A stretch of 64,000 bases of DNA from positions 90,862 through 154,861 of the IMG/VR virus record IMGVR_UViG_3300026097_000009; one strand, written 5' to 3'. Under the pieces are notes generated by a model. That model made no database searches, was not told the DNA's origin, and saw only the letters and a program-made list of their open reading frames with translations. Positions 44,590 through 58,426 of this stretch are shown piece after piece; position 1 is the first letter of the stretch, and every line of letters begins with the position of its first letter. Origin of the DNA: a virus. A program made the position numbers and the translations under genes.

Positions 44590-44871
44590 TCAATACCACC
44601 CCATTGCTCTACCAAAACCGAATATGTTAACAATTGCAAAGTAGAAAGTTAACAGCATGATCCATGCCGCACCTCTACGCCAACTTGCGTAAACCTGTGT
44701 AATTGCACCAATAAAGAAATTAGGATAAACAAATCTCATATCGGGATCGTCGGCATTTATTGCGAGATACAAACTTGCAATAACTGTAAAAACAAAACTA
44801 ACAAGTTCAAATCCAAATGCTACACGATCTGATTGATAACTGTTGATCCAAAAATCTTTAACAGTTTGCAT
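44590..44871 (-). CDS. Small three-helix membrane protein
   Basis: Three hydrophobic segments; TGATG coupling to queE gives the start MQTVKDF at 44871. Confidence 0.7.
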   Translation of the reverse strand: MQTVKDFWINSYQSDRVAFGFELVSFVFTVIASLYLAINADDPDMRFVYPNFFIGAITQVYASWRRGAAWIMLLTFYFAIVNIFGFGRAMGWY

Positions 44872-45719
44872 CAAGTGCCCCACTCATTCTTAAACAACGG
44901 CACTTGTAGTCTATCTGAATACCTAACACCGTTTGCCATAGCAAGTTCCGCTACACGGCGGTTGTTAAGCTCGTAGACACCTTCTGTGCCACCTACAGGC
45001 ATCAAATACACAGGCCCTGTAAACCCTTCCGCACGATAAATGTCTGCGGCTTCTAGTGCTTCCTCTGCATCTTCTTCTGTAGCAACTACAAACTTCAAAT
45101 ATGTATAACCCGCTTCTTCATACTCGCATACGATATCAGGGCGAATAGCTTCACTGGAATCTTCACCACTACAACTAAGTTTAGCACTTACTGAAAATGT
45201 AACTTCTCTATCATCTCGCTGTGCCGTCCACGACCTCAAATACCGTTTAAAGTCTGCGTGTAACTTCTGGGTACCATTTGTTTCAAATGTAATCTCTTTA
45301 AGCAGTTGCATACTTTCGTTATCCAGTAAGTCAGGATATGCTCTCTGCCATCCTAACAACGGCTCACCGCCTGTGATTACAAGATGCTCATCTTCCCAGC
45401 CATCCCCTGGCAACAATTCACAGATGCGATCAGCAATGCCATCTGTTTCCATCATAGGTGAAAGATGTTTAAATCTTGGATCCCACGAAGCATAACTGTC
45501 ACAGCCTGTTGCCACAATAGGCAACTCTTCATATGTGCTATACTTGTCAATGTCTTTTGCGATAACGTCGTGTGCTGTGCTAGATTCGCCTTTAGGCATA
45601 TTAAAGCCACTACAGGTAAAGTTACACCCGAATGTACGCAAGAAAATACTAGGCACGCCCATATAGCGGCCTTCGCCTTGAATGCTGTAAAACAGCTCTG
45701 CTATTTTAATTTTGCTCAT
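44871..45719 (-). CDS. queE: 7-carboxy-7-deazaguanine synthase (radical SAM)
   Basis: ELFYSIQGEG..G.PSIFLRTFGCN, VITGGEPL, FETNGT, SVSAKL, KFVV, YLMPVG and RLQV motifs. Confidence 0.9.
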   Translation of the reverse strand: MSKIKIAELFYSIQGEGRYMGVPSIFLRTFGCNFTCSGFNMPKGESSTAHDVIAKDIDKYSTYEELPIVATGCDSYASWDPRFKHLSPMMETDGIADRICELLPGDGWEDEHLVITGGEPLLGWQRAYPDLLDNESMQLLKEITFETNGTQKLHADFKRYLRSWTAQRDDREVTFSVSAKLSCSGEDSSEAIRPDIVCEYEEAGYTYLKFVVATEEDAEEALEAADIYRAEGFTGPVYLMPVGGTEGVYELNNRRVAELAMANGVRYSDRLQVPLFKNEWGT

Positions 45720-45907
45720 TGTTCTATATTACTATCTTTATCTTTCTTTGTCAAGGTAATATTACCGTTGTCGTCCTTACCCCACAACAATGTGTCACCT
45801 TCAGTCCAACCCATTTTTTCCAACATCTCGTCCGGAAATTGAAGAATTAAATCCTTAGTATCTGGATCTTCTACGAGTTCAACTTTCCATTGATTTTTCA
45901 TCATCAT
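45716..45907 (-). CDS. AbrB/MazE-like small DNA-binding protein
   Basis: LILQFPDEMLEKMGWTEGDTL motif. Confidence 0.7.
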   Translation of the reverse strand: MMMKNQWKVELVEDPDTKDLILQFPDEMLEKMGWTEGDTLLWGKDDNGNITLTKKDKDSNIEQ

Positions 45908-46721
45908 CTCCTAGTATGTACGGAATATATTTTTCAGCAATCAATTTATGATATTCTGTATTATAGTGTTCCGTATCTTCTAATAAATAATCAAGATGAT
46001 TTACACCATTTTGCAAAAAATATTCGCTTGCTGAAATCTTATTAAAATTTCCCTTTATTTTTCCATAATAATTTATATCAAAATCATAATATGTTTCTGG
46101 CTTCATTTTAAATAGATGAAGATTTACATTTCTTTCTCTACACATATTGTCAATGGTATACAACCACATCATTTGATCTTGTTTTTCTAACCAAGTGTTT
46201 AATTCAAAAAACAGTTTGATTTTCCAAAATTTTTCTTTCCATATATCAGGCTGAGATATGCCATCATCCATTGACACTCCTATTCCTGGAAATTTATCCC
46301 AATCTTCAGGGGAAGGCTTAAAGAATGCTTGAACTACATCTTCATATAGAGTATAATCCATCATTCTTATAAAGTATTCATCTCGATGAATCACTTTTGA
46401 CAGATAATCACAATCGATTAAATCAGTCCTAAAACTATCAAATGCAATTACAATTCTACTGGGGTATGTAAGTTGAATCACTATGTCTTGTAGATTTTCA
46501 AATTTATCTAAAACATTTTTTGCCCAATTTACAAAAACTCTATTAGAAGCCCCTCCCATTGCATAAACTGCTCCGGGGGTTTTAGTTGTATCTAAAAAAT
46601 GTTCAGCATAATTGTTATCGTTCCACATAGTGCCGCCCTTTTCAGGGTCTAAATCGCCGATGTAACCGTTTGTGTGACTATCACCAATAAAAGCAATTTT
46701 TACCTCAGCATCCGTCGCCAT
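45879..46721 (-). CDS. SGNH/GDSL-hydrolase-like protein
   Basis: IAFIGDSH, GGASN and C-terminal DTEH (DxxH) motifs. Confidence 0.6.
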   Translation of the reverse strand: MATDAEVKIAFIGDSHTNGYIGDLDPEKGGTMWNDNNYAEHFLDTTKTPGAVYAMGGASNRVFVNWAKNVLDKFENLQDIVIQLTYPSRIVIAFDSFRTDLIDCDYLSKVIHRDEYFIRMMDYTLYEDVVQAFFKPSPEDWDKFPGIGVSMDDGISQPDIWKEKFWKIKLFFELNTWLEKQDQMMWLYTIDNMCRERNVNLHLFKMKPETYYDFDINYYGKIKGNFNKISASEYFLQNGVNHLDYLLEDTEHYNTEYHKLIAEKYIPYILGDDDEKSMES

Positions 46722-47094
46722 ATATCACATCCCCTATTTCATCTGTGTTTACTTGATCCTTTTTGTAGTTGCCCTTCTCGGGGATAACGTGTCGAACACC
46801 GCCTCGTGGATCCTTCATATCGCCTGCCCTTCGTGGAATAAGATGAACGTGTGGATACATAACAGTCTGTCCAGCACTTTCGCCGTGATTAACTCCAACA
46901 TTAAATCCATCGCAATACCCTGCGAGAACAAGTTCCTGGCCGTGCTTGTATGCTTCTACAAGACATTTTCCGACAAGTTCAAACTCGTCTTCTCGAGGAA
47001 CAAACAATAAATGTCCTTCTGTTACAGGATATCCGTCATTGTAAACTGTAAAATCGTCTTCTTCCCAAACTACATCAGTCCAAGGTCCGTTCAT
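46705..47094 (-). CDS. HIT-family nucleotide hydrolase
   Basis: PVTEGHLLFVP..FNVGVNHG..AGQTV..HVHLIPR; the first triad His is replaced (YPHVH). Start is ATGA-coupled at 47094. Confidence 0.9.
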   Translation of the reverse strand: MNGPWTDVVWEEDDFTVYNDGYPVTEGHLLFVPREDEFELVGKCLVEAYKHGQELVLAGYCDGFNVGVNHGESAGQTVMYPHVHLIPRRAGDMKDPRGGVRHVIPEKGNYKKDQVNTDEIGDVIYGDGC

Positions 47095-47591
47095 TGTCCT
47101 ACATTCTCCCAGGGATATACAAGCCAAACGTCTTCTTCGGCTTTGTTAACTTCGTGTGTGTAATAGTTTACACCGTCAAACTCTGAACTTAGGTTTTCTG
47201 TGATAACAGCAAAGCGAACATTATCGCCCCATACAGTTTCCGCACCGTTGTATACACTGCTGTGCCAATCCTGTTTGATCCAGTTGAATGTAGCCCCAGT
47301 GTCGTTAATGTCATCCACGATGAGAATTTTTTTCTGTGCAGTCTCGTCACTGCCAAATGCATCTTCAGCCATCCAGCAGTTTGTTTCACACTGATCACCG
47401 TCTCTTAGACTTATTTTAAGGGCCTCTCCGCGGATTCCTAGCATATTGCTTAGTATGGTAGCAGGGACATTGCCACCGCGTGTAATACCTACAATGTAGT
47501 CAGGACGCCACGCATCTTTGTACATTTGTAGTGCGATGTTTACGCAGGCTGTCTCTACATCCTGCCAACTATAATAATGTTTCTTAATCAT
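47091..47591 (-). CDS. Type I purine phosphoribosyltransferase (Gpt-like)
   Basis: IVGITRGG, PRPP loop LIVDDINDTGAT and WLVYPWE. Confidence 0.9.
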   Translation of the reverse strand: MIKKHYYSWQDVETACVNIALQMYKDAWRPDYIVGITRGGNVPATILSNMLGIRGEALKISLRDGDQCETNCWMAEDAFGSDETAQKKILIVDDINDTGATFNWIKQDWHSSVYNGAETVWGDNVRFAVITENLSSEFDGVNYYTHEVNKAEEDVWLVYPWENVGQ

Positions 47592-47799
47592 TTTCTTTCC
47601 TTGCTTTTACTTTAGGATGAATTGTTTTATCATTATAAATATCTCCTGCTAGAGCTTGAATCTGATCTACAAGGTGATCTACATACTCTGCGTTATAAGA
47701 TTCGCCCGCGGCAACTCGATATTTTTCTCGATGTGCTAAGACAGCAAGACCGTGCATAGCACTTACTTTGTCCATTAACTGTTGTATGGTGTGTTGCAT
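47584..47799 (-). CDS. Hypothetical protein
   Basis: 71 aa; TAATG-coupled to the upstream gene. Confidence 0.7.
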   Translation of the reverse strand: MQHTIQQLMDKVSAMHGLAVLAHREKYRVAAGESYNAEYVDHLVDQIQALAGDIYNDKTIHPKVKARKEND

Positions 47800-48227
47800 T
47801 ACACACTTCCTTCATATTTGTCTTTTAAATATGTATGATTGTCTACCCATTCACCTTCGCGGACGAATCCCCACTCTCTTAGTTTAGGACCTGGAATAAA
47901 GAGTGTCCAAGTATCAACGCCAGGCACAAGCTCAATGCGATGGAGACTCTTAGGACTACATATTCTAAAATGCCCAGGGGCTCTCCAGAACCGTCCTTTT
48001 GGAGTAGTTTCCCAGTAACCCCCACGCAAAATAAGAGCGAAATAAGGCCAAGGGTGATCGTGTAAGTCATCTAAGTCTCCTTTGTGAAAGTTGTGTAAAA
48101 AGACATTAAACGGAAACCATTTACGATCTTTTAAAAATAAGTAGTAGCGAGTTAGGTAAGGCTCATTAGCATAGCGATCCATAATAATTCGCTTTCGGCC
48201 TAATTTTTCAAGTGCTTTTAGGATCAT
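47799..48227 (-). CDS. Cupin-like protein
   Basis: LHDHPW..LILRGGYWE..HRIEL..WTLF cupin motifs. Confidence 0.7.
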   Translation of the reverse strand: MILKALEKLGRKRIIMDRYANEPYLTRYYLFLKDRKWFPFNVFLHNFHKGDLDDLHDHPWPYFALILRGGYWETTPKGRFWRAPGHFRICSPKSLHRIELVPGVDTWTLFIPGPKLREWGFVREGEWVDNHTYLKDKYEGSV

Positions 48228-48429
48228 TGTTTGTCCTCTTGTGTGCTTTGTGCATATTTGCCCATTCTTTGCGTCTATCTTTCTTGCTCTGAACGTTTTC
48301 TATATCAATCAGTTCACTTAAATGAAAGTCCGGGTGTTCGGCATAAAATTTTTCACAGGCTTTGATGTGATTTTCAGCCTTGATCTTTTTACGCTTGCGT
48401 CCCTTGGTGTAAAAAATAAAAGTGTCCAT
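48208..48429 (-). CDS. Hypothetical basic protein
   Basis: Start reassigned to MDTFIF (ATG at 48429, TAATG-coupled). Confidence 0.6.
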   Translation of the reverse strand: MDTFIFYTKGRKRKKIKAENHIKACEKFYAEHPDFHLSELIDIENVQSKKDRRKEWANMHKAHKRTNNDPKST

Positions 48430-48602
48430 TAGTCTAAATCCTTGTACTCTACTACAACACCATTCTCTCCCCAAATTTTAGCTTGTTTTTCTGCTTCTTC
48501 TCTTGAGTCGTGTAAAACAATTTCAAGCCCATCGGGACCTTCTTTCGTCACAAATATCCAATCATCGTCCGGCATTGGAACTTTTACTGCATATTTAGGC
48601 AC
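48429..48602 (-). CDS. Small hypothetical protein (57 aa, not in ORF track)
   Basis: GTG start: MPKYAVKVPMPDDDWIFVTKEGPDGLEIVLHDSREEAEKQAKIWGENGVVVEYKDLD. Fills the gap exactly and overlaps both neighbours. Confidence 0.65.
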   Translation of the reverse strand: MPKYAVKVPMPDDDWIFVTKEGPDGLEIVLHDSREEAEKQAKIWGENGVVVEYKDLD

Positions 48603-48987
48603 AGAGTTCTTCCTTGATATATCTTTTTAGTTCTTTATCTTCTACATCTGCTGGGATATCATTTTGATAAAAGATTCTGTAACTGTCTGAACCGTATTTT
48701 CCAATACCGCACAGATCCAAAGCATCTTTCTTGTCCCAGTTAATATATTGTAAACTCATTTTCCAGATACGTCTAGCTCTTACATTTTGCATACCGAGCG
48801 GTTCTAATTGTTCTGCGATTTCGTCTACAGTGGCATACAGCAACAGTCCTGCCGTAGGCCAACGCTCAAAAAATTCTGTGAGCACAGGCTTTGTTTGCCG
48901 TCTGTCAACTTGGTTAAGGCAAATGACACCAACCATGTGTTGCCATTCGCACTCAACTTGCTGTTGTACCATTAGTTCGTCTTTCAT
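48595..48987 (-). CDS. MBD4-like HhH DNA glycosylase
   Basis: WQHMVGVICLNQ..LEPLGM..RA..LCGIGKYGSDSYRIF..EDKELKRY, matching the MBD4 catalytic-domain pattern. Confidence 0.85.
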   Translation of the reverse strand: MKDELMVQQQVECEWQHMVGVICLNQVDRRQTKPVLTEFFERWPTAGLLLYATVDEIAEQLEPLGMQNVRARRIWKMSLQYINWDKKDALDLCGIGKYGSDSYRIFYQNDIPADVEDKELKRYIKEELCA

Positions 48988-49587
48988 TTAAATTTCTGCC
49001 TTACAATTAAATGCAATTGTGATTCTTTCACGCTCGCCTTTATGTTCATTTACGCCGTGTTCAAAGTAACTAGGAAAAATATAAAGCCTGCCTGTTTTAG
49101 TTTCGCATTGCATCGATTTTGCAGTATATTGATTTTCACCGGTTTTGTAATGCCAGGGCCAGTTTGAATCTTTGTTTTTGTCTAAGAATTCAATCGGACT
49201 GCTATCTTCGTCTGACTGAACATAAAAAACCCCACTCCATAAATTAGGAAGATGGTTGTGAGATCCATGCCAGCTATTTTTTTCTCCAACAGTAGCCCAG
49301 CTATCGGAAATATAAACTTTTCCTTTAAGTTGAACTGTGTTATGAACTGTCTGCACCATATCAACAATAAAATTTTTAATTTTTTCTAGCTCTTCATGAT
49401 CTAAGAAATTTTGCAGAGTGCGGTATGTTGTAAACCCGTGACCTTTATAGTTTCCGTCATTTACTTCTTTATATAACAAAATACGTTCGATAATCTCTTT
49501 TTGAATTTCGTCGGGCAAGTCAAAATCGCACCAGAAAAGCCCGGCAGGAAAGCAATCATGCCTAAACAATTCTAGTTTGTCTGTCAT
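48988..49587 (-). CDS. Putative 2OG-Fe(II) oxygenase (HxH...H type)
   Basis: HGSHNH..WSGVFYV..LYIFPSYFEHGV..RITIAFN. Start reassigned to MTDKLE (49587). Confidence 0.8.
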   Translation of the reverse strand: MTDKLELFRHDCFPAGLFWCDFDLPDEIQKEIIERILLYKEVNDGNYKGHGFTTYRTLQNFLDHEELEKIKNFIVDMVQTVHNTVQLKGKVYISDSWATVGEKNSWHGSHNHLPNLWSGVFYVQSDEDSSPIEFLDKNKDSNWPWHYKTGENQYTAKSMQCETKTGRLYIFPSYFEHGVNEHKGERERITIAFNCKAEI

Positions 49588-49685
49588 AGTAAAAAGTCCT
49601 GCACAAATCCTAGTACTCCTAATGCTAGAGCACAAACTAATAAACCTTTTGCCATATTAACAGCAACAATATCTAAATCATTCAT
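49584..49685 (-). CDS. 33-aa hydrophobic peptide (not in ORF track)
   Basis: MNDLDIVAVNMAKGLLVCALALGVLGFVQDFLL; ATGA overlaps with both folE and the oxygenase gene. Confidence 0.6.
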   Translation of the reverse strand: MNDLDIVAVNMAKGLLVCALALGVLGFVQDFLL

Positions 49686-50380
49686 CGTGGTGCAAACTCC
49701 TGTTGTAGTTTGATATTGTCAAAAAACTCTTTCTTTGTTCCTGCGTCATCTTTAAACGCACCTTTCAGCACAGTTGTCTGTGTAAGACTGCTATGTGCCA
49801 TAATGCCACGATTTTCGCAACAACCATGCACCGCCTGGACATACACACCTACGTTTTCGCTACCAGTAGCTCGCATAATTTCACGAGCAATGTCATTACA
49901 CAGTTCTTCTTGTAGTGTGCCACGTCGAGCACACCACTGTGCAATGCGAGTATACTTAGATAATCCAATCAGTGTATCTGCGGCAATAATACCAATATAT
50001 GCTACACCTGTAACAGGCTGGTGATGATGACTACACATGCTTTTAAGTTCGCTTCGAACCACAAGCATGCCTTCATATTTTTCATTGGTAATGTCATCTG
50101 GCTCGTTAGGGAATGCTGTAGCATCCGGACGATAGTCATAGCGTCCTGCCATGATCTCATTAAAGTACATCTTAGCCAGTCGACGTGCTGTACCTTTTGA
50201 GTTAGGATCTGTGTGTCGATCGATGATCAGTGTGTCTAGTACAGTTTCAAATGCTTCTGTAGCTTCGTCGATCAATTGTTCTTTGTCGCCGCTTTGTAGC
50301 AAGCGAGCAATGTTGTCGCCAGCCCAGTAACGCTTGTCTGCATTTTTACAGCGTTCGATAATTTCTTCGTATTTCTTCAT
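49682..50380 (-). CDS. folE: GTP cyclohydrolase I
   Basis: TARRLAKMY, SMCSHH, GLSKYTRI, RRGTLQEEL and HGCCENRGI motifs. Confidence 0.92.
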   Translation of the reverse strand: MKKYEEIIERCKNADKRYWAGDNIARLLQSGDKEQLIDEATEAFETVLDTLIIDRHTDPNSKGTARRLAKMYFNEIMAGRYDYRPDATAFPNEPDDITNEKYEGMLVVRSELKSMCSHHHQPVTGVAYIGIIAADTLIGLSKYTRIAQWCARRGTLQEELCNDIAREIMRATGSENVGVYVQAVHGCCENRGIMAHSSLTQTTVLKGAFKDDAGTKKEFFDNIKLQQEFAPR

Positions 50381-50415
50381 TGTTTCTCCGAGTTAATGCG
50401 GTGGATCGCACATGT

Positions 50416-51507
50416 TTATTTTAAATTATTTAGAAGGTTTTCGCAACTGAAATAATTTTTCTTAAGTATATCTACCTGTTTATTTAGGCTAGGAAGATAA
50501 GAATCATAATTTTCTACATAGTCTTGAACACGAGCAACAACCTTGTCTCTGTTTGCTTTATAAGCCGCAAAGTCCTCTGTCCATTCTGAAGGGTATTTAA
50601 AATCGTCCACAGCCATTTCTGTATAGCTTAATCTATCAGGAACCATAGGAATAGTATCTACTAATGCTCCTTCGTACCAACTAATACCCAATGTTTCTTG
50701 TAAGTTAGCTGAGAACACAAGTTTAGCACGACCTAGCAAGTTGTGATATTCATTCTTTGTAAGTTGTTGATCCTGACAAACTACAAATTCGTATTGTGGA
50801 AGCTGTTCTTTTAAATCACGGAATATATCAACTTGTTTTTCAGGAGCGATACGATGCGGGAACAACACAATATCTTCCTTGGGCATGCCTTTATACAGTG
50901 TGAACATATCATCCATGTATTCCATAGGCCAGCCTGTTTTTACAATTCTTCCGTTTTCTTTTAAGGCAGTTATTGTTTGATTCGCCCATGGCATATTTTC
51001 ATTGCTTGCAAAAACCATAGTGTCTGCAAACATGTTAATATGAAAGTTAGTAGCAAAGTAGTTGTGATGCGCGGCAGCAAAAAACGATTTTTCAGCATGT
51101 CTTACCCACGGAGCATCTCCAATCAGTCTGCCTAAAAAGTCTTGAGGATCATAACTACCAGCATGCCACAATGCGTGAATTCTTACGCCAATGCCAAGTA
51201 GCTCTGCCATATAACGTAAGTTAATAATGCCAGGATGCCAAGCATCAGTAAAAATAAAATGATCGCCGCTGGCAACGTCCCCGGCTGTGAATAGTCTAGA
51301 GATCTTTTCAACCTGCGAAGCTTTGTAGATATTAGTACCACCAAAGTTAAGAAACGCACCTGGAGTAGTAGCAGATGGTATGTCAGTTGGACCTTCAATA
51401 ACTTCAACATCAAACCCTTTATTACGAAGCAGTACAGGCAAGTGGGTTTTCCACTCGCCTGTGTATCTTGTTTCTACTGCCTCAATGTCAACAATAAAAA
51501 CTTTCAT
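50416..51507 (-). CDS. GT-B fold (GT4-like) glycosyltransferase
   Basis: FPHRIAPEKQ and ETLGISWYE (E-x7-E) donor-binding motifs. Confidence 0.8.
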   Translation of the reverse strand: MKVFIVDIEAVETRYTGEWKTHLPVLLRNKGFDVEVIEGPTDIPSATTPGAFLNFGGTNIYKASQVEKISRLFTAGDVASGDHFIFTDAWHPGIINLRYMAELLGIGVRIHALWHAGSYDPQDFLGRLIGDAPWVRHAEKSFFAAAHHNYFATNFHINMFADTMVFASNENMPWANQTITALKENGRIVKTGWPMEYMDDMFTLYKGMPKEDIVLFPHRIAPEKQVDIFRDLKEQLPQYEFVVCQDQQLTKNEYHNLLGRAKLVFSANLQETLGISWYEGALVDTIPMVPDRLSYTEMAVDDFKYPSEWTEDFAAYKANRDKVVARVQDYVENYDSYLPSLNKQVDILKKNYFSCENLLNNLK

Positions 51508-51713
51508 CGTCTATTGTAGTTATTATTGTTGTGCTTGTGTTTGCTAACATTTGGACGCTTTTTAAAACCGTTCTTATAGTTTAAGAAAGCCCTCCAATTC
51601 CAATTGCTCTTTTTATAAAGATGAGCAGGGTTAAACTCACGAAGTTCCCACCGACAAAAATGGTGGTACTCTTCAAGATCGTTGAAGATTTTTTCAACTT
51701 GTTGTTTCATCAT
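51504..51713 (-). CDS. Hypothetical protein
   Basis: 69 aa with an AAGGA SD; ATGA overlap with the GT gene. Confidence 0.7.
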   Translation of the reverse strand: MMKQQVEKIFNDLEEYHHFCRWELREFNPAHLYKKSNWNWRAFLNYKNGFKKRPNVSKHKHNNNNYNRR

Positions 51714-51722
51714 AATTCCTTA

Positions 51723-52127
51723 TTAATATTTGATGAATGATCCATTTTCTCCGTCTTCGGAGACCTCAATCCAAACCTCACGGCCTGGGTATTGCTCTAC
51801 AATTTGCTGATGTAATTCATCAGAAATCATTTCGCAACTCTTGTGATTCAGTTCCAATATGGAAGTTGAATGGTCAACTTCTTCATAGAGACGTTGCAAC
51901 CAACGCTTGAACTGAATAAACTCAATGTCTCGATCGTCGTGAAACACTTCGATCCAAACTTTAAACTTGAAAATGTGTCTGTGTAGATAACCAAGGAAAC
52001 TTACATCGTCCCAATCACCTGTTGCCAGTTTGGGATCAGTGTCTGCACCTGGATAGTAATGAACTCCTTCCTTGTCGAAAGTCACCCAAATCATTTTCTT
52101 AGGACGAGTGTCTTGTTTAATAATCAT
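51723..52127 (-). CDS. QueD-like T-fold protein of the LxxxHRHxF type (DpdL-like, proposed CDG decarboxylase)
   Basis: LGYLHRHIF replaces the QueD CxxxHGH; SCEMI and VSEDGENG align with QueD C-terminal motifs; sits in the folE/queE/dpdA context. Confidence 0.7.
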   Translation of the reverse strand: MIIKQDTRPKKMIWVTFDKEGVHYYPGADTDPKLATGDWDDVSFLGYLHRHIFKFKVWIEVFHDDRDIEFIQFKRWLQRLYEEVDHSTSILELNHKSCEMISDELHQQIVEQYPGREVWIEVSEDGENGSFIKY

Positions 52128-52720
52128 AAGCCTTCAAATAAATTCCTTCTGGTAGTTTTAGTTCTTGATAGTGATTCAAATTCTTTCATAGCTTTATTGC
52201 TGATTCTATATCTATATGATCCTTCACTAACATAACCGTCTAGTACAGCGGTTTTACAATCGCTGGTGATATTTTTTCGTGTGTCGCCGTTTAGAATTTT
52301 ATCTCGAAGATTGTCGTATGCCTTTTCTAATTGTTCTTGTATTTCTGGCAAATCTAAATCGATACAAGTAGCGCCAACTACTTCATCAAAATCCGCATCC
52401 CATTCTACAGTATTTCGATTAAGTGTCTTTTTATAATATCTGGTTTTGTACCAGTTTTTTGTATTTTTGATATCTTTCACAGTCATTGATCCGGTGTTAT
52501 GAGCGGCTTTGCTACCACGCTTTCTTGTTTTATTTTCCACACCTTCAATTGGTAAATCAACATCGCCAAATTTATCAATGCTATATCCGTTTTCTAACAA
52601 TGTATCGTCGACCCACCTTCCTACATCACCGTCATTTTTAGGACTCGGAATTTGATCACCTACTTTTACATTGTTCTTGAGAGTTTTTACCCTATAAGTT
52701 TGTTTTTGGTATTCGGTCAT
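52124..52720 (-). CDS. Putative PD-(D/E)xK endonuclease
   Basis: GDVGRWVD...VDLPIEGVENKTRK spacing resembles type II restriction / MutH-like nucleases. Confidence 0.45.
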   Translation of the reverse strand: MTEYQKQTYRVKTLKNNVKVGDQIPSPKNDGDVGRWVDDTLLENGYSIDKFGDVDLPIEGVENKTRKRGSKAAHNTGSMTVKDIKNTKNWYKTRYYKKTLNRNTVEWDADFDEVVGATCIDLDLPEIQEQLEKAYDNLRDKILNGDTRKNITSDCKTAVLDGYVSEGSYRYRISNKAMKEFESLSRTKTTRRNLFEGL

Positions 52721-53229
52721 TTTAAAACCTCATCGCCTTTGTATTTTTCCCAAGGTGTGAAAACATTTGTATCCATTAGATCGTGCAGTCGATGACACCA
52801 TACACCTGGATTGCTTGCACGAAAATCTTTGTCGTCGATCTTGATCATTGTGTTGTAGTTCCACTGACCGATGTAAGGCAGTGGCACACGAATCTGCGGA
52901 ATAAAATAGTCGGATTCAGTGAGAGGACCTTCTAGAAACTGTTCTGCATAACTGATTGGAATATCCAGTGTGCAGAGATAGTCCTCATTGAGAAAGTCCA
53001 TGATCATGGCTTCCCAAGAATCCCAGTCGTCAAATGACTTGGGGTTGAAACTGTGATTCGCACCAAAGAAGATGTGTTCAATGCCTTCACAGTGTTCGAG
53101 GATTTCTGCAGTGTCCTGTATGCCTGTGACAAACAGTGTTCTCATACCGTATGCCGGAGTCTTTTCAACTTCGATGCCTCGGAAGAACACTACGTCTTCT
53201 GCAACGCCAGATTCATAATCTCTTTTCAT
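52717..53229 (-). CDS. Hypothetical protein in the deazaguanine locus
   Basis: 170 aa (GIEVEKTPAYGMRTLFV, HIFFGANHSF, KIDDKDF..NPGVW); ATGA-coupled on both sides. Confidence 0.8.
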   Translation of the reverse strand: MKRDYESGVAEDVVFFRGIEVEKTPAYGMRTLFVTGIQDTAEILEHCEGIEHIFFGANHSFNPKSFDDWDSWEAMIMDFLNEDYLCTLDIPISYAEQFLEGPLTESDYFIPQIRVPLPYIGQWNYNTMIKIDDKDFRASNPGVWCHRLHDLMDTNVFTPWEKYKGDEVLK

Positions 53230-53435
53230 TCGTTATCCAAATCCATAACTTCGTGGGTTTGTTCGTGTTGCTGTTTATACAGTTTAGCAAGTTCGTCTTT
53301 AAGATGCAACCTCTTTTTCTTTTTTTCTGTCAACCCTAAATCATCGAAAGCTTGACCTTTTTCAATACGATCTATTTCTTTATTTAGGTATGCGTGTGTT
53401 TCTTCTAAAAATTTGATTCTATCTGCCAATGTCAT
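53226..53435 (-). CDS. DUF465/YdcH-like coiled-coil protein
   Basis: LEETHAYLNKEI...KKKRLHLKDEL. Confidence 0.7.
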   Translation of the reverse strand: MTLADRIKFLEETHAYLNKEIDRIEKGQAFDDLGLTEKKKKRLHLKDELAKLYKQQHEQTHEVMDLDNE

Positions 53436-54986
53436 TTACTTCTCCTTAAGAGATTCCTCTAATCTATCAAGTTCTAGATCTTCACGATCATCTGTCCACG
53501 GCTCTTCTTCTTCGCCTTCGTCGTTGACTTCGACAAACATGCGATTATACTCATTTGTCACACCGCCACGCAAACGAGCACCTTCTAGATCTTTTAAGAA
53601 ACTGTCTGCTTCTTTGATCATTGCAAATGCAGATTCTTTAGAATCACAGTCAAACAGTTCTTCCACAAACCGATCAAAGTATAGAATGTTGCGTGGTACC
53701 CAATCTGAATACTCATCACTCTTGTCTGCTTGCTTGACTTTCTTCCACTGTCTCCAATCTGGCTGTGCTTTTGCACGTTCAATATCCATTAGATTGTTAG
53801 CACGTTGTACTGCTACAATATGGCAGTATACATTGTGATTCATCATAAGTGCGTATGCAAACGAATCCCACGATGTTTTACCTTCCTTGCCGATCTTGTT
53901 AAGCATACCGGGTGCATAGTGACAGATATCAGCAACGGTTAATCGTCTGCCAATTTCTGACTCGAACGGGAATGGAATATCGTGTCGTTCTGCAAGTGCC
54001 TTGTTATCCGGAGCTTTGTCCATAATAACCGCCCAACGCTTTGCACTGTGCTGTGCATTAGTGTATACCAGTCCATGTGCTGTTGCAATAAACGGAGAAG
54101 CACAATCGAAACTGATAGTGAAGTTTTCATTCACATGCTTGCGAACTTGACGCTGAATAGAAGTTAAGTAGCACGACCAATCAAGTTGTGCAGTACCTAG
54201 GAAGTGCATCCAATCCTTGCCTTCCAGCATGCCGTCGAACTTCATGGTGATCAATCTTCGCAGTGTAATAGGCATCTTGCACATATTAGCACCGCCCATT
54301 GCCCAACCTTCGCAGGCCTTATCACCCCATACTGAAGGATCTGAAAACTCTTTAACACCTTCATACCACTCTTCCGCAGTTTCCCAATCCGAACCTTGCA
54401 AGACATTTAGGAACTTAGTTTGGCCTAATCTGCGCTCTAACCAGTATTTGTTGTTGAAGCGAGTCTTTTCCAAGCAATCTTCAAAACTCTTTAATCCAGT
54501 TTTCGGACTGTGAATATGATCGCATGCCCAAGTCGGAACATCAAGCGTCATTGACCAATCCGCCGTAAGTTCAAGCCAATTGAGGATTTTGTCACGAGTC
54601 TTGTTTGCTTCTGGGCCTTCAAAGTTTAACCAATCAAACTTGAGAATGCCTTTACCTACCTGATATCCGCCGGAGTCTCCTAAGATCATCGAAGTTGATC
54701 GATCTCTGTCGTGGATCATTGCATCTTGCACAAGACTTTTCTGTAAATCTAATTGTGCATGACCTGCAGAATACAACCCGTAGTCGTAAGTAAAATAGCC
54801 CTGTTCTTTGTTTAGAAAGTTCATGCCTTCAATACCACGATCAAACCCTTGAGGAATACGATCAGTGGGCACAAATTCTTCCTGCCTTTGCTTTGCAATG
54901 TATGTGCTAAAGAAACTGCTAATAGCAGGCAAATACACAGCATAGTCTTTCTGTAATGGTGTAAGATTTACTGGTGGATTCTTCAT
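53436..54986 (-). CDS. dpdA: TGT-fold DNA-guanine transglycosylase (DpdA-like)
   Basis: GDSGGYQ, MTLDVP, VLQG, AMGG, HFLG, SFDCAS and late HN motifs; clustered with folE and queE and coupled to the clamp gene. Confidence 0.8.
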   Translation of the reverse strand: MKNPPVNLTPLQKDYAVYLPAISSFFSTYIAKQRQEEFVPTDRIPQGFDRGIEGMNFLNKEQGYFTYDYGLYSAGHAQLDLQKSLVQDAMIHDRDRSTSMILGDSGGYQVGKGILKFDWLNFEGPEANKTRDKILNWLELTADWSMTLDVPTWACDHIHSPKTGLKSFEDCLEKTRFNNKYWLERRLGQTKFLNVLQGSDWETAEEWYEGVKEFSDPSVWGDKACEGWAMGGANMCKMPITLRRLITMKFDGMLEGKDWMHFLGTAQLDWSCYLTSIQRQVRKHVNENFTISFDCASPFIATAHGLVYTNAQHSAKRWAVIMDKAPDNKALAERHDIPFPFESEIGRRLTVADICHYAPGMLNKIGKEGKTSWDSFAYALMMNHNVYCHIVAVQRANNLMDIERAKAQPDWRQWKKVKQADKSDEYSDWVPRNILYFDRFVEELFDCDSKESAFAMIKEADSFLKDLEGARLRGGVTNEYNRMFVEVNDEGEEEEPWTDDREDLELDRLEESLKEK

Positions 54987-55720
54987 GATGCCTGCGCTGG
55001 AATAATGTATTTGTAGTTTGCCAATCCTGAATCTAGTGTGATCTGGATTGCACCTTCGTTTGATAAACTCATTTTTGTGTTGTTTACATCAGCAATTTTA
55101 AGAATTGCAAGAATTTGTGATACAGGCCAAGCCCATCCTTTATCCATTTTGCCATCTACGCCCATTGCAAATACAAATTCGCCGCCGTGTGTGCTTGCAT
55201 CTCCAAACACAAACTTTAAGTTGCCGTCTTCTGTTTTAGCAACAAACGTAGGATGTTCAGAGTTTGCACCTGCCTGGAAGTTAAAACGCTGTACTGCCGC
55301 AACACTAGGCTCGATTTCTACATCCCAGTTTACACCACGGAACTTCACAGTCTTCATCTTTTCGTTGATGATTTCTTGATTCATAAAGCGATAATCGTTT
55401 TTAAAATCACCTGCCGCATTTTCGAAGTGAATCCCAACAGGAATGTCAACACCGTTGCGTTCTGCATTTTTGATTGTGATCTTTGCGTCTTCTTTGTACT
55501 CAGCACCGTCTAGCAGATACTTCAGCTTTTGCAGTGCAGGCATACCGAACACACCCATCATATCCGGGTAAGTGTTGTGTGTTTCTGCTTCCATAATGAC
55601 AGAACGATCGTCTGCCATAGAGTTGAACACAGTCTTGTCTTCCGAACCTGTGACCTTTACGGTTGTAAGGAAACCAAGATTCTGTGTGTGATTTACAATG
55701 TCTTGTAAGATGTCTTTCAT
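54983..55720 (-). CDS. Sliding clamp (T4 gp45-like)
   Basis: 245-aa alpha/beta protein directly downstream of the DNA polymerase; ends in clamp-like strands (GAIQITLDSGLANYKYIIPA). Confidence 0.7.
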   Translation of the reverse strand: MKDILQDIVNHTQNLGFLTTVKVTGSEDKTVFNSMADDRSVIMEAETHNTYPDMMGVFGMPALQKLKYLLDGAEYKEDAKITIKNAERNGVDIPVGIHFENAAGDFKNDYRFMNQEIINEKMKTVKFRGVNWDVEIEPSVAAVQRFNFQAGANSEHPTFVAKTEDGNLKFVFGDASTHGGEFVFAMGVDGKMDKGWAWPVSQILAILKIADVNNTKMSLSNEGAIQITLDSGLANYKYIIPAQAS

Positions 55721-55741: not shown

Positions 55742-55770
55742 AGTATATAGGTTTGTTTAGTCAAAGTCAA
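55742..55770 (-). promoter_or_regulatory. Sigma70-type promoter for the clamp-dpdA operon
   Basis: TTGACT-N17-TATACT followed by a GGAG SD and the ATG at 55720. Confidence 0.75.
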
Positions 55771-58426
55771 ATAATTTGTTGAATGTGTTATCGCTTCGAG
55801 TAGAAGAAATATCCCAATCCAACACTCCGATAAGGTTTTTTAGTTTTTCGTCAATCACTGTTGTTTCCATTGCGGAATCGTCGAACGGCAACTCTTTAAA
55901 CCAATCCGGTAATCTCAGCTCATCCACTGGATAAGCCACTGAAGTGAAGCTCATTGGATTATCCTTGAGCTTGCACACAATTACCTTTGCACCGTCTGTA
56001 ATGCTCATAGAATACTTGTCATCGTTCATACGCTTGAGCGTATTCCAGTTGATCGAGGCACGAACGTGTCCAGGCATATTAGTCTTGCCCGCTTTCTTTT
56101 CTTTTGCCTTGTATTCTGTGATTTTGTTTGCTCGCTTGGGCGAACCTTTTTCCCAACCCGGGCGAGCTTTAAAGTCTGTGCGGAATGCTGTGATATATTC
56201 AAGACAGTCTTCTTTGCTGTATCCTTCTAGTACCATAAGCAGTACGTTTGTAAGGAATTCCTGAATTGCTACTGGTGTATCTGAACGCTTGAGATCAAGC
56301 CCCATAGGTTTCATCTTTCCAGACTTGCCGTCTACGTCTAAACGCTTGCCTTCATTGTCGTATACAAGAGCCGCATAGCGTTTTTTAGTAATGAACAGAC
56401 CTTTTGATGCTACAATCTCGCGACCTGCTTTGATTACTTCTCCGCGTGTCTTAGGACAGTGAAACGCATCTTGCATAAACTTAGGGAATGTATCACTGGC
56501 AGAGTCGCCTATTGTGTCATACAGTTCAATCACTGAATCTTTGGTCCACGGTACTGATCCGTTTTCAATATCATCTCTCAGCGTAGTGTATGCAGAAAAA
56601 TAACAAGAGTCTGTATCACCATAGATAATTGCTTTACCTACGTGATCATATTCGCCTGTGATAATCTCGTTGATCTTACCAGCCATGTGTTTTGTGATCT
56701 GCCTACCAGTTAGTGTGGTACTTTGACCGATCCTGTTATCAAAGAAACGACATCCTGCGTTTAGGATTGCACCGTATAACGAGTTCAAGTTAATCTTTTT
56801 AACCAATTGTCGTTTGTCCCAATATTCAGTTTCAATATCATTGCCCGCACCGATAGCTTCTTTTAGTTTTTTCTGCATGTCTTTGCGTTCTGCATACCAA
56901 CGCTTTAGCAGTCCGGGAATAATACCTTCTTTCTCATAGGTAAAGATTGTGCCATTTGCACTTAACACCCACGGCTGATTAGAGTTAAAGATAAGTTCAT
57001 AGATCTGTGCGGCACTTAGCGTGTCACTGCCGCCTTCTTCCCAATCGATAGTAATTTCTCTGCCAACTTCTTGCTCCATAACCGCAGTGTATTCTAAACT
57101 ACCAAATACTCCTTCCCAAGCACCGGCAAAACTTTTACCTTTACCCATCTGTGCTTCAAGGAATGCTTTTGTTCCGTCTTGACGCAGTTGTCCTACAATA
57201 GTCTCTGGACCCATATTAAGGGCACGAATCACTGACGGATACAGTGAGTTGATATCCACACTTCCGATCCATTCATGAATGCCTTTTTTAGGAAATGCAA
57301 CATATGCTCCGGCGGCCGCTGTGTTTTCTAGTTGATCTCGTCTAATTCTGTTTGGGACGACAAACCCTCGACGATGTGCTTCATTGATAATTGCCTGCTC
57401 CGTCACCGCAACAGCACCCATTGTGGTTTGGATTAACACAGTGTTTTCGTGTGCAATTGTGTTTGCAAGATCAATAAACTTCAGCTTCTTGTCTAGCTTG
57501 TCTAACAGTGCGGTATCCTGTCTGTTATATTCAATGAACGTTTTGAAGTCGTTGTTATATAACTGATCCAGTGTGCCTTCATAGACAGTTTTGTTTTCGC
57601 CAATCTCCATTTCACCGATGGCATCCAGTCGATAGGTATGGCGTTCTTCATAGGTATACTTTCTGTAAAGTTCTAAGCTGTCAACGTGTACCCTACCAAT
57701 AAGATCGTAAGTCACACTCATCTTACCGAACTTTTCAAACTCACGTTTTTTAGGAAGTTGATTCCACAAACAGAAACGACGAGTGTCTTCCTTGGAAAGA
57801 ACCTTAATCACACGGTTCACTGTATAGGGAATATCAAAACCTTCTGAGTTCCAACCACTTAACACATCGGCATCTTCGATGATATCCAAAAATGTATCTA
57901 GCATTTTTCGTTCGCTGTCAAACAACATCATGTTGTCGAAGTCTTTGGTTGCTTCCTCAGCTTCCGCCATACTCATAGTCTTCGGTGGAATGGCAAGACA
58001 GATAAGACTGTCCATCCACTGCAAATGTATAGCAATCGAAGTGATCGGCATAAATGCATCTTCTGGAGATGCATAGCCACGTTCTGGATCAAAATCAACC
58101 TCGATATCGAAGAATGCCACGTTCAGTTTAGGTGCATCTGCATTTAGATAGTTGTCTTCTAAACAGCGATAGATCGGATTAATATCACTTTCGTATTGTT
58201 TTTTATTGGAATGAATTTTTAATTCTTTGTGTAGCTCTTTGAGGTTCTTACAGGAAACTCTGCTTACAGGGTTGCCATAAATTGATTGGTACTTGCCTGA
58301 AGGATCATCATAGTAAAAGATGTGACGTGCAGGGTATTCTTTGTATTGTCGTTTCCCGTTGCTGTCTCTTTCAACAACGTGAATGACATCCTGATCTCGA
58401 TCGTAATATGCGTCGACGTAGCTCAT
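55757..58426 (-). CDS. Family B DNA polymerase (T4 gp43-like)
   Basis: Exonuclease motifs FFDIEV, GWNSEGFDIPY and YNRQD; polymerase motifs DINSLYPS, KINLNSLYG, YGDTDS and KKRY. Confidence 0.97.
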   Translation of the reverse strand: MSYVDAYYDRDQDVIHVVERDSNGKRQYKEYPARHIFYYDDPSGKYQSIYGNPVSRVSCKNLKELHKELKIHSNKKQYESDINPIYRCLEDNYLNADAPKLNVAFFDIEVDFDPERGYASPEDAFMPITSIAIHLQWMDSLICLAIPPKTMSMAEAEEATKDFDNMMLFDSERKMLDTFLDIIEDADVLSGWNSEGFDIPYTVNRVIKVLSKEDTRRFCLWNQLPKKREFEKFGKMSVTYDLIGRVHVDSLELYRKYTYEERHTYRLDAIGEMEIGENKTVYEGTLDQLYNNDFKTFIEYNRQDTALLDKLDKKLKFIDLANTIAHENTVLIQTTMGAVAVTEQAIINEAHRRGFVVPNRIRRDQLENTAAAGAYVAFPKKGIHEWIGSVDINSLYPSVIRALNMGPETIVGQLRQDGTKAFLEAQMGKGKSFAGAWEGVFGSLEYTAVMEQEVGREITIDWEEGGSDTLSAAQIYELIFNSNQPWVLSANGTIFTYEKEGIIPGLLKRWYAERKDMQKKLKEAIGAGNDIETEYWDKRQLVKKINLNSLYGAILNAGCRFFDNRIGQSTTLTGRQITKHMAGKINEIITGEYDHVGKAIIYGDTDSCYFSAYTTLRDDIENGSVPWTKDSVIELYDTIGDSASDTFPKFMQDAFHCPKTRGEVIKAGREIVASKGLFITKKRYAALVYDNEGKRLDVDGKSGKMKPMGLDLKRSDTPVAIQEFLTNVLLMVLEGYSKEDCLEYITAFRTDFKARPGWEKGSPKRANKITEYKAKEKKAGKTNMPGHVRASINWNTLKRMNDDKYSMSITDGAKVIVCKLKDNPMSFTSVAYPVDELRLPDWFKELPFDDSAMETTVIDEKLKNLIGVLDWDISSTRSDNTFNKLFDFD

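Follow-up and report, generated by a model that had tools for sequence, protein, structure and literature searches.

A predicted QueC-less 7-deazaguanine DNA-modification cassette with a linked glycosyltransferase in an uncultured aquatic jumbo phage

Described modification systems and their relation to the locus

To our knowledge, eight 7-deazaguanine derivatives have been described in phage DNA, and none of them bears a sugar. All phages known to carry 7-deazaguanines encode DpdA, and the base is inserted after replication (PMC10516641). In phage phiST, which encodes the T-fold protein DpdL, all G is replaced by plain 7-deazaguanine (DG; dDG as the deoxynucleoside) (PMC10516641). Here, we characterized a locus on a 64,000-nucleotide stretch of viral DNA (hereafter, the window), which is the last 64 kb of the IMG/VR viral contig IMGVR_UViG_3300026097_000009 (154,861 bp; ~44% complete as estimated by CheckV). 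The locus (44871-55720, minus strand) lies directly downstream of a DNA polymerase gene, and our results support its reading as a cassette for 7-deazaguanine modification of DNA that lacks QueC and encodes a DpdA-type enzyme, and in which genes for a glycosyltransferase (GT), a 170-aa protein (g170) and a 69-aa protein (g69b) are embedded. Given that relatives of the contig reach 353 kb, the contig is a fragment of a jumbo phage genome; specifically, the cassette lies within the replication module of an uncultured aquatic T4-like jumbo phage of ~350 kb. The locus gave no match by megablast against GenBank phages. Deazaguanine modification by phage DpdA and DpdL is known, and what is new here is the strictly linked tailoring set of GT, g170 and g69b, which is undescribed.

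The closest described system is that of phiST, which resembles the cassette in its use of FolE, QueD, QueE, DpdL and a TGT-fold (tRNA-guanine transglycosylase-fold) insertase, in lacking QueC, and in the position of the genes beside polymerase genes (PMC10516641). Unlike the window, phiST has neither g170 nor g69b, and no GT of the window's family was detectable in it by homology searches; in addition, its DpdA3 is 259 aa long and its product is plain dDG. Closer in gene content are two cultured phages, Pseudomonas jumbo phage PA5oct and Acidovorax phage ACP17, although their hosts and families are other than those of the window's uncultured aquatic clade. The PA5oct cassette (EST35_0316 to EST35_0322) encodes homologues of the TGT-like protein (43% identity), GT (41%), DpdL (56%) and QueE (33%), whereas g170 went undetected in PA5oct and FolE is kept with two PTPS genes at a distant locus, ~55 kb from the cassette; QueC was not found. 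PA5oct DNA resists restriction enzymes with G-containing sites and is restricted by nucleases that sense hypermodified DNA; a modified G was inferred, the base itself not being identified (PMC12191111). The ACP17 cassette (ASD50402 to ASD50406) shares GT (35% identity), DpdL (53%, by tblastn), homologous TGT-like and QueE proteins and a g170 homologue, although its TGT-like protein is 424 aa long and similar at the profile level only.

Sugar-bearing 7-deazaguanines do occur in nature, since huimycin and the dapiramicins are free 7-deazaguanines with a sugar put on N2 by a GT (PMC7439116). The likeness of that GT (HuiG) to the window's is one of role, namely a GT for a 7-deazaguanine made by FolE, QueD and QueE homologues (PMC7439116); unlike the base proposed here, these compounds are free, O-methylated actinomycete metabolites made from preQ0 (QueC is present), and no transglycosylase or DNA is involved. 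In phage DNA, GT-B enzymes decorate pyrimidines, as in the glucosyl-5-hydroxymethylcytosine of T-even phages and the arabinosyl-5-hydroxycytosine of RB69, DLP3 and HY126 (PMC13326640). A GT-B enzyme, nucleotide sugars, a non-canonical phage base and a sugar type varying between relatives are common to both settings, and the window's GT has both the HY126 GT (9iqz) and a DNA alpha-GT of a cyanophage among its fold matches, with a similarity that is no more than generally GT-B (template modelling score (TM) 0.5-0.6). However, the pyrimidine systems use a pyrimidine's hydroxyl as acceptor, the pyrimidine itself being made at the nucleotide level, whereas the base of the window would be a purine analogue inserted by base exchange. 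Mannosyl- and galactosyl-queuosine of vertebrate tRNA also carry a sugar on a TGT-inserted 7-deazaguanine derivative; unlike the window, the nucleic acid is tRNA and not DNA, and the sugar sits on the cyclopentenediol, which needs preQ1 chemistry absent here. Our literature search turned up no paper on a glycosylated deazaguanine in DNA, in line with an earlier note, made from the letters of the window, whose author knew of no such characterized modification.

Identity and linkage of the core proteins

The earlier note had read the locus as a co-oriented, packed run of genes that includes a DpdA-like TGT, a T-fold protein with an LxxxHRHxF motif and a GT-B glycosyltransferase. All the genes that it named are indeed on the minus strand at those places, with 4-bp overlaps or gaps of <50 bp. 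None of the three key proteins, the T-fold protein included, matched Pfam, NCBIfam or PADLOC, and only the T-fold protein matched PHROGs (phrog_17812), to which no name is attached. Sequence searches of the TGT-like protein, GT and g170 against Pfam, PHROG, NCBIfam, PADLOC and PDB gave nothing usable, and fold prediction was therefore used for the TGT-like protein and GT; the folds obtained agree with the earlier assignments, as described below.

The GT (50416-51507, 363 aa; P0003) was modelled by AlphaFold2 (AF2) with a predicted local distance difference test score (pLDDT) of 93. Foldseek matched the model to BshA, MshA, glycogen synthase and PimA (E ~1e-10, TM up to 0.67), and the predicted fold has two Rossmann-like domains with an EX7E motif within the C-terminal donor-binding domain. 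EX7E is a mark of retaining GT4 enzymes; in the window's family, E271-x7-E279 was invariant in 79 sequences, as were R219, E223 and K224 (R...EK motif). The model thus identifies the 363-aa protein as a genuine GT-B enzyme, closest to retaining GT4 transferases. The window's GT had no Pfam match, PF00534 included, whereas the GTs of ACP17 and PA5oct and a paralogue described below matched PF00534 under the cut-off, and precomputed tables list this domain for several metagenomic homologues. A search of the ESM Atlas gave generic GT1 leads only. Against predicted viral structures, the ACP17 cassette GT (TM 0.86) and A0A889IQ48 (370 aa, TM 0.83) stood out, the remainder being at TM <=0.64; A0A889IQ48 is probably the GT of Burkholderia phage BCSR5, as judged from protein length alone. 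As to kinship with the T4 enzymes beyond the general GT-B fold, neither AGT nor BGT was among the top 50 PDB matches, and among the viral models that of the cyanophage "DNA alpha-GT" ranked 47 (TM 0.50).

The TGT-like protein (53436-54986, 516 aa; P0002) belongs to a large family, in which 877 cluster representatives were counted at E <=0.001. In 73 aligned members, D104-S105-G-G107, H261 and D294 were invariant; the protein thereby has two catalytic-type Asp residues, one within DSGG[FY]Q and the other, the nucleophile, within FDC/xSxD. As judged from the motifs, we take D104 and D294 to correspond to D102 and D280 of TGT. As shown by Foldseek of the AF2 model (pLDDT 92, 73-sequence alignment), tRNA-guanine transglycosylases ranked first (Zymomonas mobilis TGT, E 2.6e-8, probability 1.0), and VIA-align gave Z scores of 17.6 for ArcTGT, 16.3 for TGT, 16.2 for QTRT2 and 15.0 for the DNA preQ0 insertase structure DpdA 7ui4, the next unrelated TIM barrel being at 11.5. 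In ACP17, the dpdA position holds the gene for the 424-aa TGT-like protein, which hhalign aligned with the 516-aa protein across DSGG and xSxD (96.9%, E 1.7e-10), and the relation to phiST DpdA3 was weak (61%). Neither PF01702 nor a PADLOC Dpd model matched the 516-aa protein, a contig-wide search with PF01702 was also empty, and only 2/73 relatives matched PF01702, at E 0.0045. From the modelled structure and the profile searches, this protein appears to represent a new, very divergent DpdA-type subfamily outside the described ones, and it is predicted to swap guanine in DNA for a 7-deazaguanine base.

In every related locus that extends far enough, the polymerase and clamp genes are followed by that for TGT. 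The polymerase ends in ...NTFNKLFDFD (55757-55800), and the acidic tail of the TGT-like protein (53436-53600) holds YNRMF, which resembles the polymerase-terminal FNKLF. A pattern [FY]-x-x-[LMI]-F was present in its strict form in the tails of 16/73 TGT-family members and was ~18-fold enriched in tails versus bodies. The element shared by the polymerase and the TGT family may be a clamp-binding peptide.

DpdL was defined by the change of the QueD signature CxxxHGH to LxxxHRHxF (PMC10516641). The T-fold paralogue of QueD in the window (51723-52127, 134 aa; P0001; phrog_17812, E 4e-32) carries LGYLHRHIF, which fits this motif. By tblastn, phiST DpdL (CGPG_00067) was recovered at 33% identity (E 5e-8) in addition to that of ACP17, and an alignment of 13 DpdLs including CGPG_00067 showed L45, H49, H51, F53, H23, E69, S97-C98-E99 and E124 to be invariant. 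By motif and homology, we regard the protein as a genuine DpdL, in agreement with the earlier note, which had linked this motif to unsubstituted 7-deazaguanine. As for its context, a DpdA-like protein, FolE and QueE are encoded, QueC is absent, and QueD, missing from the 44%-complete contig, is present in relatives. FolE (GTP cyclohydrolase I, 49682-50380) was identified by PF01227 (E 1.3e-37) and was present in 21/31 of the complete cassettes introduced below. The QueE-like radical SAM enzyme (7-carboxy-7-deazaguanine synthase, 44871-45719) matched phrog_2076 at E 8.7e-54, radical SAM in Pfam weakly, and five NCBIfam QueE models at E 1e-10 to 1e-13, all far under the curated cut-offs.

The earlier note had also listed QueC, QueF, ArcS/Gat-QueC and a canonical QueD as missing from the window. 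In the whole contig, with over half of the genome missing, we found no QueC, PTPS/QueD, QueF or PF01702 TGT; the QueC model PF06508, whose domain is included in Gat-QueC, had no match, and ArcS and Gat-QueC were not searched as such. QueC and QueF were absent from 5/5 longer relatives searched as well, including a 99%-complete 353-kb genome, indicating that the lineage truly lacks QueC. The claim is weakened for QueD, since relatives carry PTPS genes elsewhere. The 99%-complete relative has one ~30 kb away from the cassette, and in 3/5 longer relatives a PTPS-family gene away from the cassette encodes CxxxHGY where QueD has CxxxHGH (L084:1411-1947, L085:1435-1950, L086:1405-1989 and L003:1462-1935, covering relatives and the second PTPS of PA5oct). 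With the contig only 44% complete, the missing QueD most likely reflects location or incompleteness. Note that the 99%-complete relative (G001) also has a thymidylate-synthase-family gene a few kb from its cassette (L168, G001:180577-181440, 332 bits), and that none was found on the window's contig.

The family of g170 (52717-53229) has no name. No family or PDB match was found, nor any in the ESM Atlas, and none of its ~8000 metagenomic homologues is named. Conserved motifs are TLFVxG, HIFFGANxSF and KIDDKxFxxxNPGVW. The ACP17 homologue (E 1.3e-23) is encoded directly upstream of the TGT-like gene, and a 155-aa protein of BCSR5 gave a weak hint only (E 0.023). Homology of g170 to phiST CGPG_00066, to a 143-aa protein of BUDD and to PA5oct EST35_0320 was ruled out (hhalign probability <1%). 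The basic protein g69b (51504-51713) is encoded between DpdL and GT and is a core member within the window's clade, beyond which no homologue was detected in the cultured-phage loci compared.

We next examined related loci. Scanning IMG/VR with the TGT alignment, we obtained a first set of 80 loci (TGT identity 66-87%) with the near-fixed order polymerase, clamp, TGT, (DUF465), g170, DpdL, g69b, GT, FolE, ..., cupin, PRTase (phosphoribosyltransferase), HIT, ..., QueE, RNase H-like gene. In the 31 loci that span the whole cassette, on which all counts per gene are based, TGT, g170, DpdL, g69b, GT and QueE were each present in 31/31 and constitute the conserved core. A second scan, with an alignment headed by a distant family member, reached loci of 40-54% TGT identity, in which the module block was still present; scans seeded with two single distant TGT representatives gave no related loci. 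Among the resulting 115 unique loci (TGT identity 40-88%), 88 had both DpdL and GT, none had DpdL without GT when the locus ran on far enough, two had neither and 25 were too short to judge. The two loci with neither (L160:1456-6181 and L163; TGT identity 40%) hold clamp, TGT, FolE and PRTase genes, with no DpdL, GT or g170 within 7 kb. A 130-aa open reading frame of L160 was considered as a hidden DpdL and was ruled out by its sequence. In both loci, a gene for a Dam-type N6-adenine methyltransferase follows in place of DpdL, GT and g170.

In three loci (L066:12703-14854, L069:8995-12556 and L073:7948-10075), the main GT appeared to be missing. This was ruled out, because its place is taken by a divergent GT paralogue (hhalign 99.5%, E 2.8e-23), after which comes a gene for an NAD-dependent sugar epimerase/dehydratase. 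The presence of this pair in three relatives suggests that the sugar type may differ between lineages. The L069 cassette also holds a GMP reductase gene (PF00478), and that of L066 holds a MazG gene.

Outside this clade, the GT gene is next to those of DpdA and/or DpdL in six other phage lineages, with different gene orders. Specifically, the order is TGT, GT, DpdL, ..., PRT-like, QueE in PA5oct-like Pseudomonas jumbo phages; FolE, g170 homologue, TGT-like gene, GT, DpdL, QueE in ACP17; clamp, glycosylase, DpdL, GT, FolE, QueE in Sinorhizobium phage Phosso; GT, TGT, DpdL, QueE in Xanthomonas phages BUDD and X1; and QueE, PRTase, QueD, FolE, second GT, 416-aa protein, DpdL, GT paralogue in cyanophage BUCT-ZZ01, the sixth lineage being BCSR5. 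These results bear out the co-occurrence that the earlier note had proposed to look for between the GT and 170-aa genes and dpdA/dpdL, with g170 detected in only one of the six lineages, ACP17. The module is found across a very abundant clade of aquatic jumbo phages as well as in cultured phages infecting Pseudomonas, Acidovorax, Xanthomonas, Burkholderia, Sinorhizobium and Synechococcus. No GT of the window's family was found near DpdL in the phiST group, RHph_I1_18, Ahp1, Bakedbeans or D479; Chryseobacterium phage MA9V-3 gave no GT match in homology searches, its locus itself not being inspected. In these cultured phages, three further details were recorded. The second GT of BUCT-ZZ01 is a 447-aa group-1 glycosyltransferase (L097:6010-7353) upstream of the 416-aa protein and DpdL genes, and PA5oct EST35_0320 (L001:15434-15952), between DpdL and the PRT-like gene, encodes a truncated 172-aa protein that is NAD-dependent epimerase/dehydratase-like (PF01370, E 6e-7). 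In Vibrio phage Bakedbeans, the DpdL match is at the C-terminal end of the 383-aa annotated protein gp176 (L166:6221-7372), which is a fusion or an annotation artefact.

Proposed pathway and competing explanations

Given these folds, family memberships, gene contents and co-occurrences, we propose a pathway in which the enzymatic steps are conjectural, as are the sugar, the atom that bears it and whether insertion precedes glycosylation. FolE, a PTPS/QueD encoded elsewhere and QueE would make 7-carboxy-7-deazaguanine (CDG) from GTP, and since QueC is absent, the pathway cannot proceed to preQ0. DpdL would then remove the carboxyl group to convert CDG into DG, the DpdA-type transglycosylase would swap guanine in newly replicated phage DNA for the deazapurine, and the GT4-like GT would put a sugar from a nucleotide sugar on the deazaguanine, either as the free base or in DNA. 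The glycosylation step is probably assisted by g170 and g69b, and the PRTase probably recycles the released guanine. As to the linkage, DpdL would leave an electron-rich C7 exposed, on which a C-glycoside could form; alternatively, the sugar could be on N2, where huimycin carries it. We give an even chance to the view that the cassette performs deazaguanine hypermodification, with the GT adding a sugar to the base bound for phage DNA. A fuller version, in which guanine is replaced by a sugar-bearing 7-deazaguanine whose sugar varies by lineage and the g170 family is a new pathway enzyme, is more tentative and falls somewhat short of even.

Several points weigh against hypermodification. The best structural matches of the GT, BshA and MshA, use small molecules and do not imply DNA or a deazapurine as acceptor; accordingly, glycosylation of the free base is slightly favoured. 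DpdL is so far a proposed CDG decarboxylase (PMC10516641). Moreover, DG has no obvious hydroxyl or amine at C7, so that hydroxylation, C-glycosylation or attachment at N2/O6 must be assumed; for a prior oxidation, the cupin, present in 27/31 cassettes, may be considered. Synteny within one clade is inherited, so the count of 88 to 0 overstates independence, and the independent support consists of the six other phage lineages. Finally, a sugar on a DNA base in the GT-carrying phages is a prediction from gene content.

Other explanations were weighed against the same data. The cassette may make plain dDG or dCDG while the GT serves another target (for example a different base, a protein of the virion or of replication, or some molecule of the host), linked to it by shared early/middle expression. 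This agrees with phiST reaching 100% dDG without this GT, with the generic GT4 character of the nearest solved GT relatives, and with the thymidylate-synthase-family gene near the cassette of G001, although the window's contig lacks such a gene. However, the GT stays beside DpdA or DpdL in seven phage lineages of otherwise different gene order, it was never parted from DpdL among the 115 loci, and the two loci without it lack DpdL and g170 together. In addition, the nucleases that attack PA5oct have been described as sensors of hypermodified DNA (PMC12191111). We consider a separate target of the GT unlikely.

Alternatively, GT and g170 could be helpers in making or delivering DG, for example by transient glycosylation or activation of CDG or DG, the final base being sugar-free. 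In ACP17, g170 and GT are indeed located between FolE and QueE, and the top GT fold matches act on small molecules. On the other hand, phiST and four further phages that encode DpdL lack a GT of this family in its vicinity, indicating that DG synthesis does not need the GT in general, and the exchange of the GT for a paralogue accompanied by a sugar epimerase resembles diversification of a final decoration rather than of an intermediate; such a helper role is, in our view, quite unlikely. It is very improbable that the deazapurine enters DNA as a nucleotide, with the PRTase making deazaguanosine monophosphate, as in the toyocamycin and tubercidin pathways, for conversion to the dNTP, and with the TGT-like protein acting on tRNA or not being an insertase. 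Although the PRTase gene is present in 21/31 cassettes and in PA5oct and BUCT-ZZ01, with a GMP-reductase gene in one relative's cassette and HIT and MazG genes nearby, a TGT-fold gene is in every cassette and the PRTase gene is not, and the PRTase is equally well explained by guanine salvage. Furthermore, DpdA is encoded by all known 7-deazaguanine phages, with post-replicative insertion (PMC10516641), and the TGT gene lies behind the polymerase and clamp genes, some family members even sharing the polymerase tail motif.

Returning to glycosylation of the base, the conserved GT and g170 within DpdA/DpdL cassettes point to an undescribed purine hypermodification; if this is true, natural DNA would for the first time be seen to hold a glycosylated purine analogue. 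It could explain the modified G of PA5oct, a candidate for phage therapy. When DpdL and DpdA of phiST or ACP17 were expressed in E. coli, no dDG was formed, and the authors suggested that further enzymes may be required (PMC10516641); the pathway proposed here could explain why DpdL and DpdA alone failed in that reconstitution. Thousands of metagenomic sequences from a large clade of aquatic phages contain the module, so that the base may be widespread in nature, and a sugar-bearing base could affect restriction, CRISPR, DNA-glycosylase defences and sequencing.

Neighbouring and accessory genes

Upstream, the cassette adjoins the gene for a family-B-type DNA polymerase (55757-58426, minus strand, as are all genes below), which is 52% identical to the PA5oct DNA polymerase. 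The 245-aa clamp-like protein encoded next (54983-55720) matched phrog_12062 and has homologues in PA5oct and Phosso, that of Phosso being annotated as a sliding clamp, and its gene lies upstream of that for TGT in every related locus long enough to include it. The clamp named in the earlier note therefore stands on this PHROG and this annotation, a weaker basis than that of the other genes. For the latter, its identifications of DUF465, FolE, 2OG (2-oxoglutarate) oxygenase, HhH-GPD glycosylase, cupin, PRTase, HIT and QueE were borne out by Pfam or PHROG matches.

The 69-aa DUF465 protein (53226-53435; Pfam E 1.5e-11) is an accessory member found in 11/31 complete cassettes. The 198-aa protein (52124-52720) that had been called a nuclease candidate shows a PD-(D/E)xK-like pattern, with D-x7-E-x-K read by eye, which is the basis of the assignment; its gene is sporadic (5/80 loci of the first set, 2/31 complete cassettes). 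It is probably a mobile PD-(D/E)xK nuclease inserted between g170 and DpdL and outside the pathway.

Downstream of FolE are genes for a 2OG-Fe(II) oxygenase (48988-49635; PF13759, E 1.5e-21) and a short HhH-GPD DNA glycosylase (48595-48987; PF00730, 28.9 bits), whose stretch GIGKYGSDSYRIF we take to be MBD4-like. The oxygenase had been suggested as a partner in sugar addition; as a hydroxylase partner of the GT it was ruled out, since it occurs in 0/31 complete cassettes. The glycosylase is variable (7/31).

More regular companions are the 142-aa cupin-like protein (47799-48227; "cysteine dioxygenase"-type phrog_4786, E 2e-36), the type I PRTase (47091-47591; PF00156, E 9e-12), and a HIT-family nucleotide hydrolase or transferase (46705-47127; PF01230, E 2.6e-9; 19/31). 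The PRTase may salvage the guanine set free in the base exchange, or its substrate may be the deazapurine base. Between HIT and QueE, the 280-aa protein (45879-46721) had no family match in Pfam, PHROG and NCBIfam searches; it is variable (5/31) and carries an N-terminal FIGDSHT motif, which is GDSL/SGNH-like.

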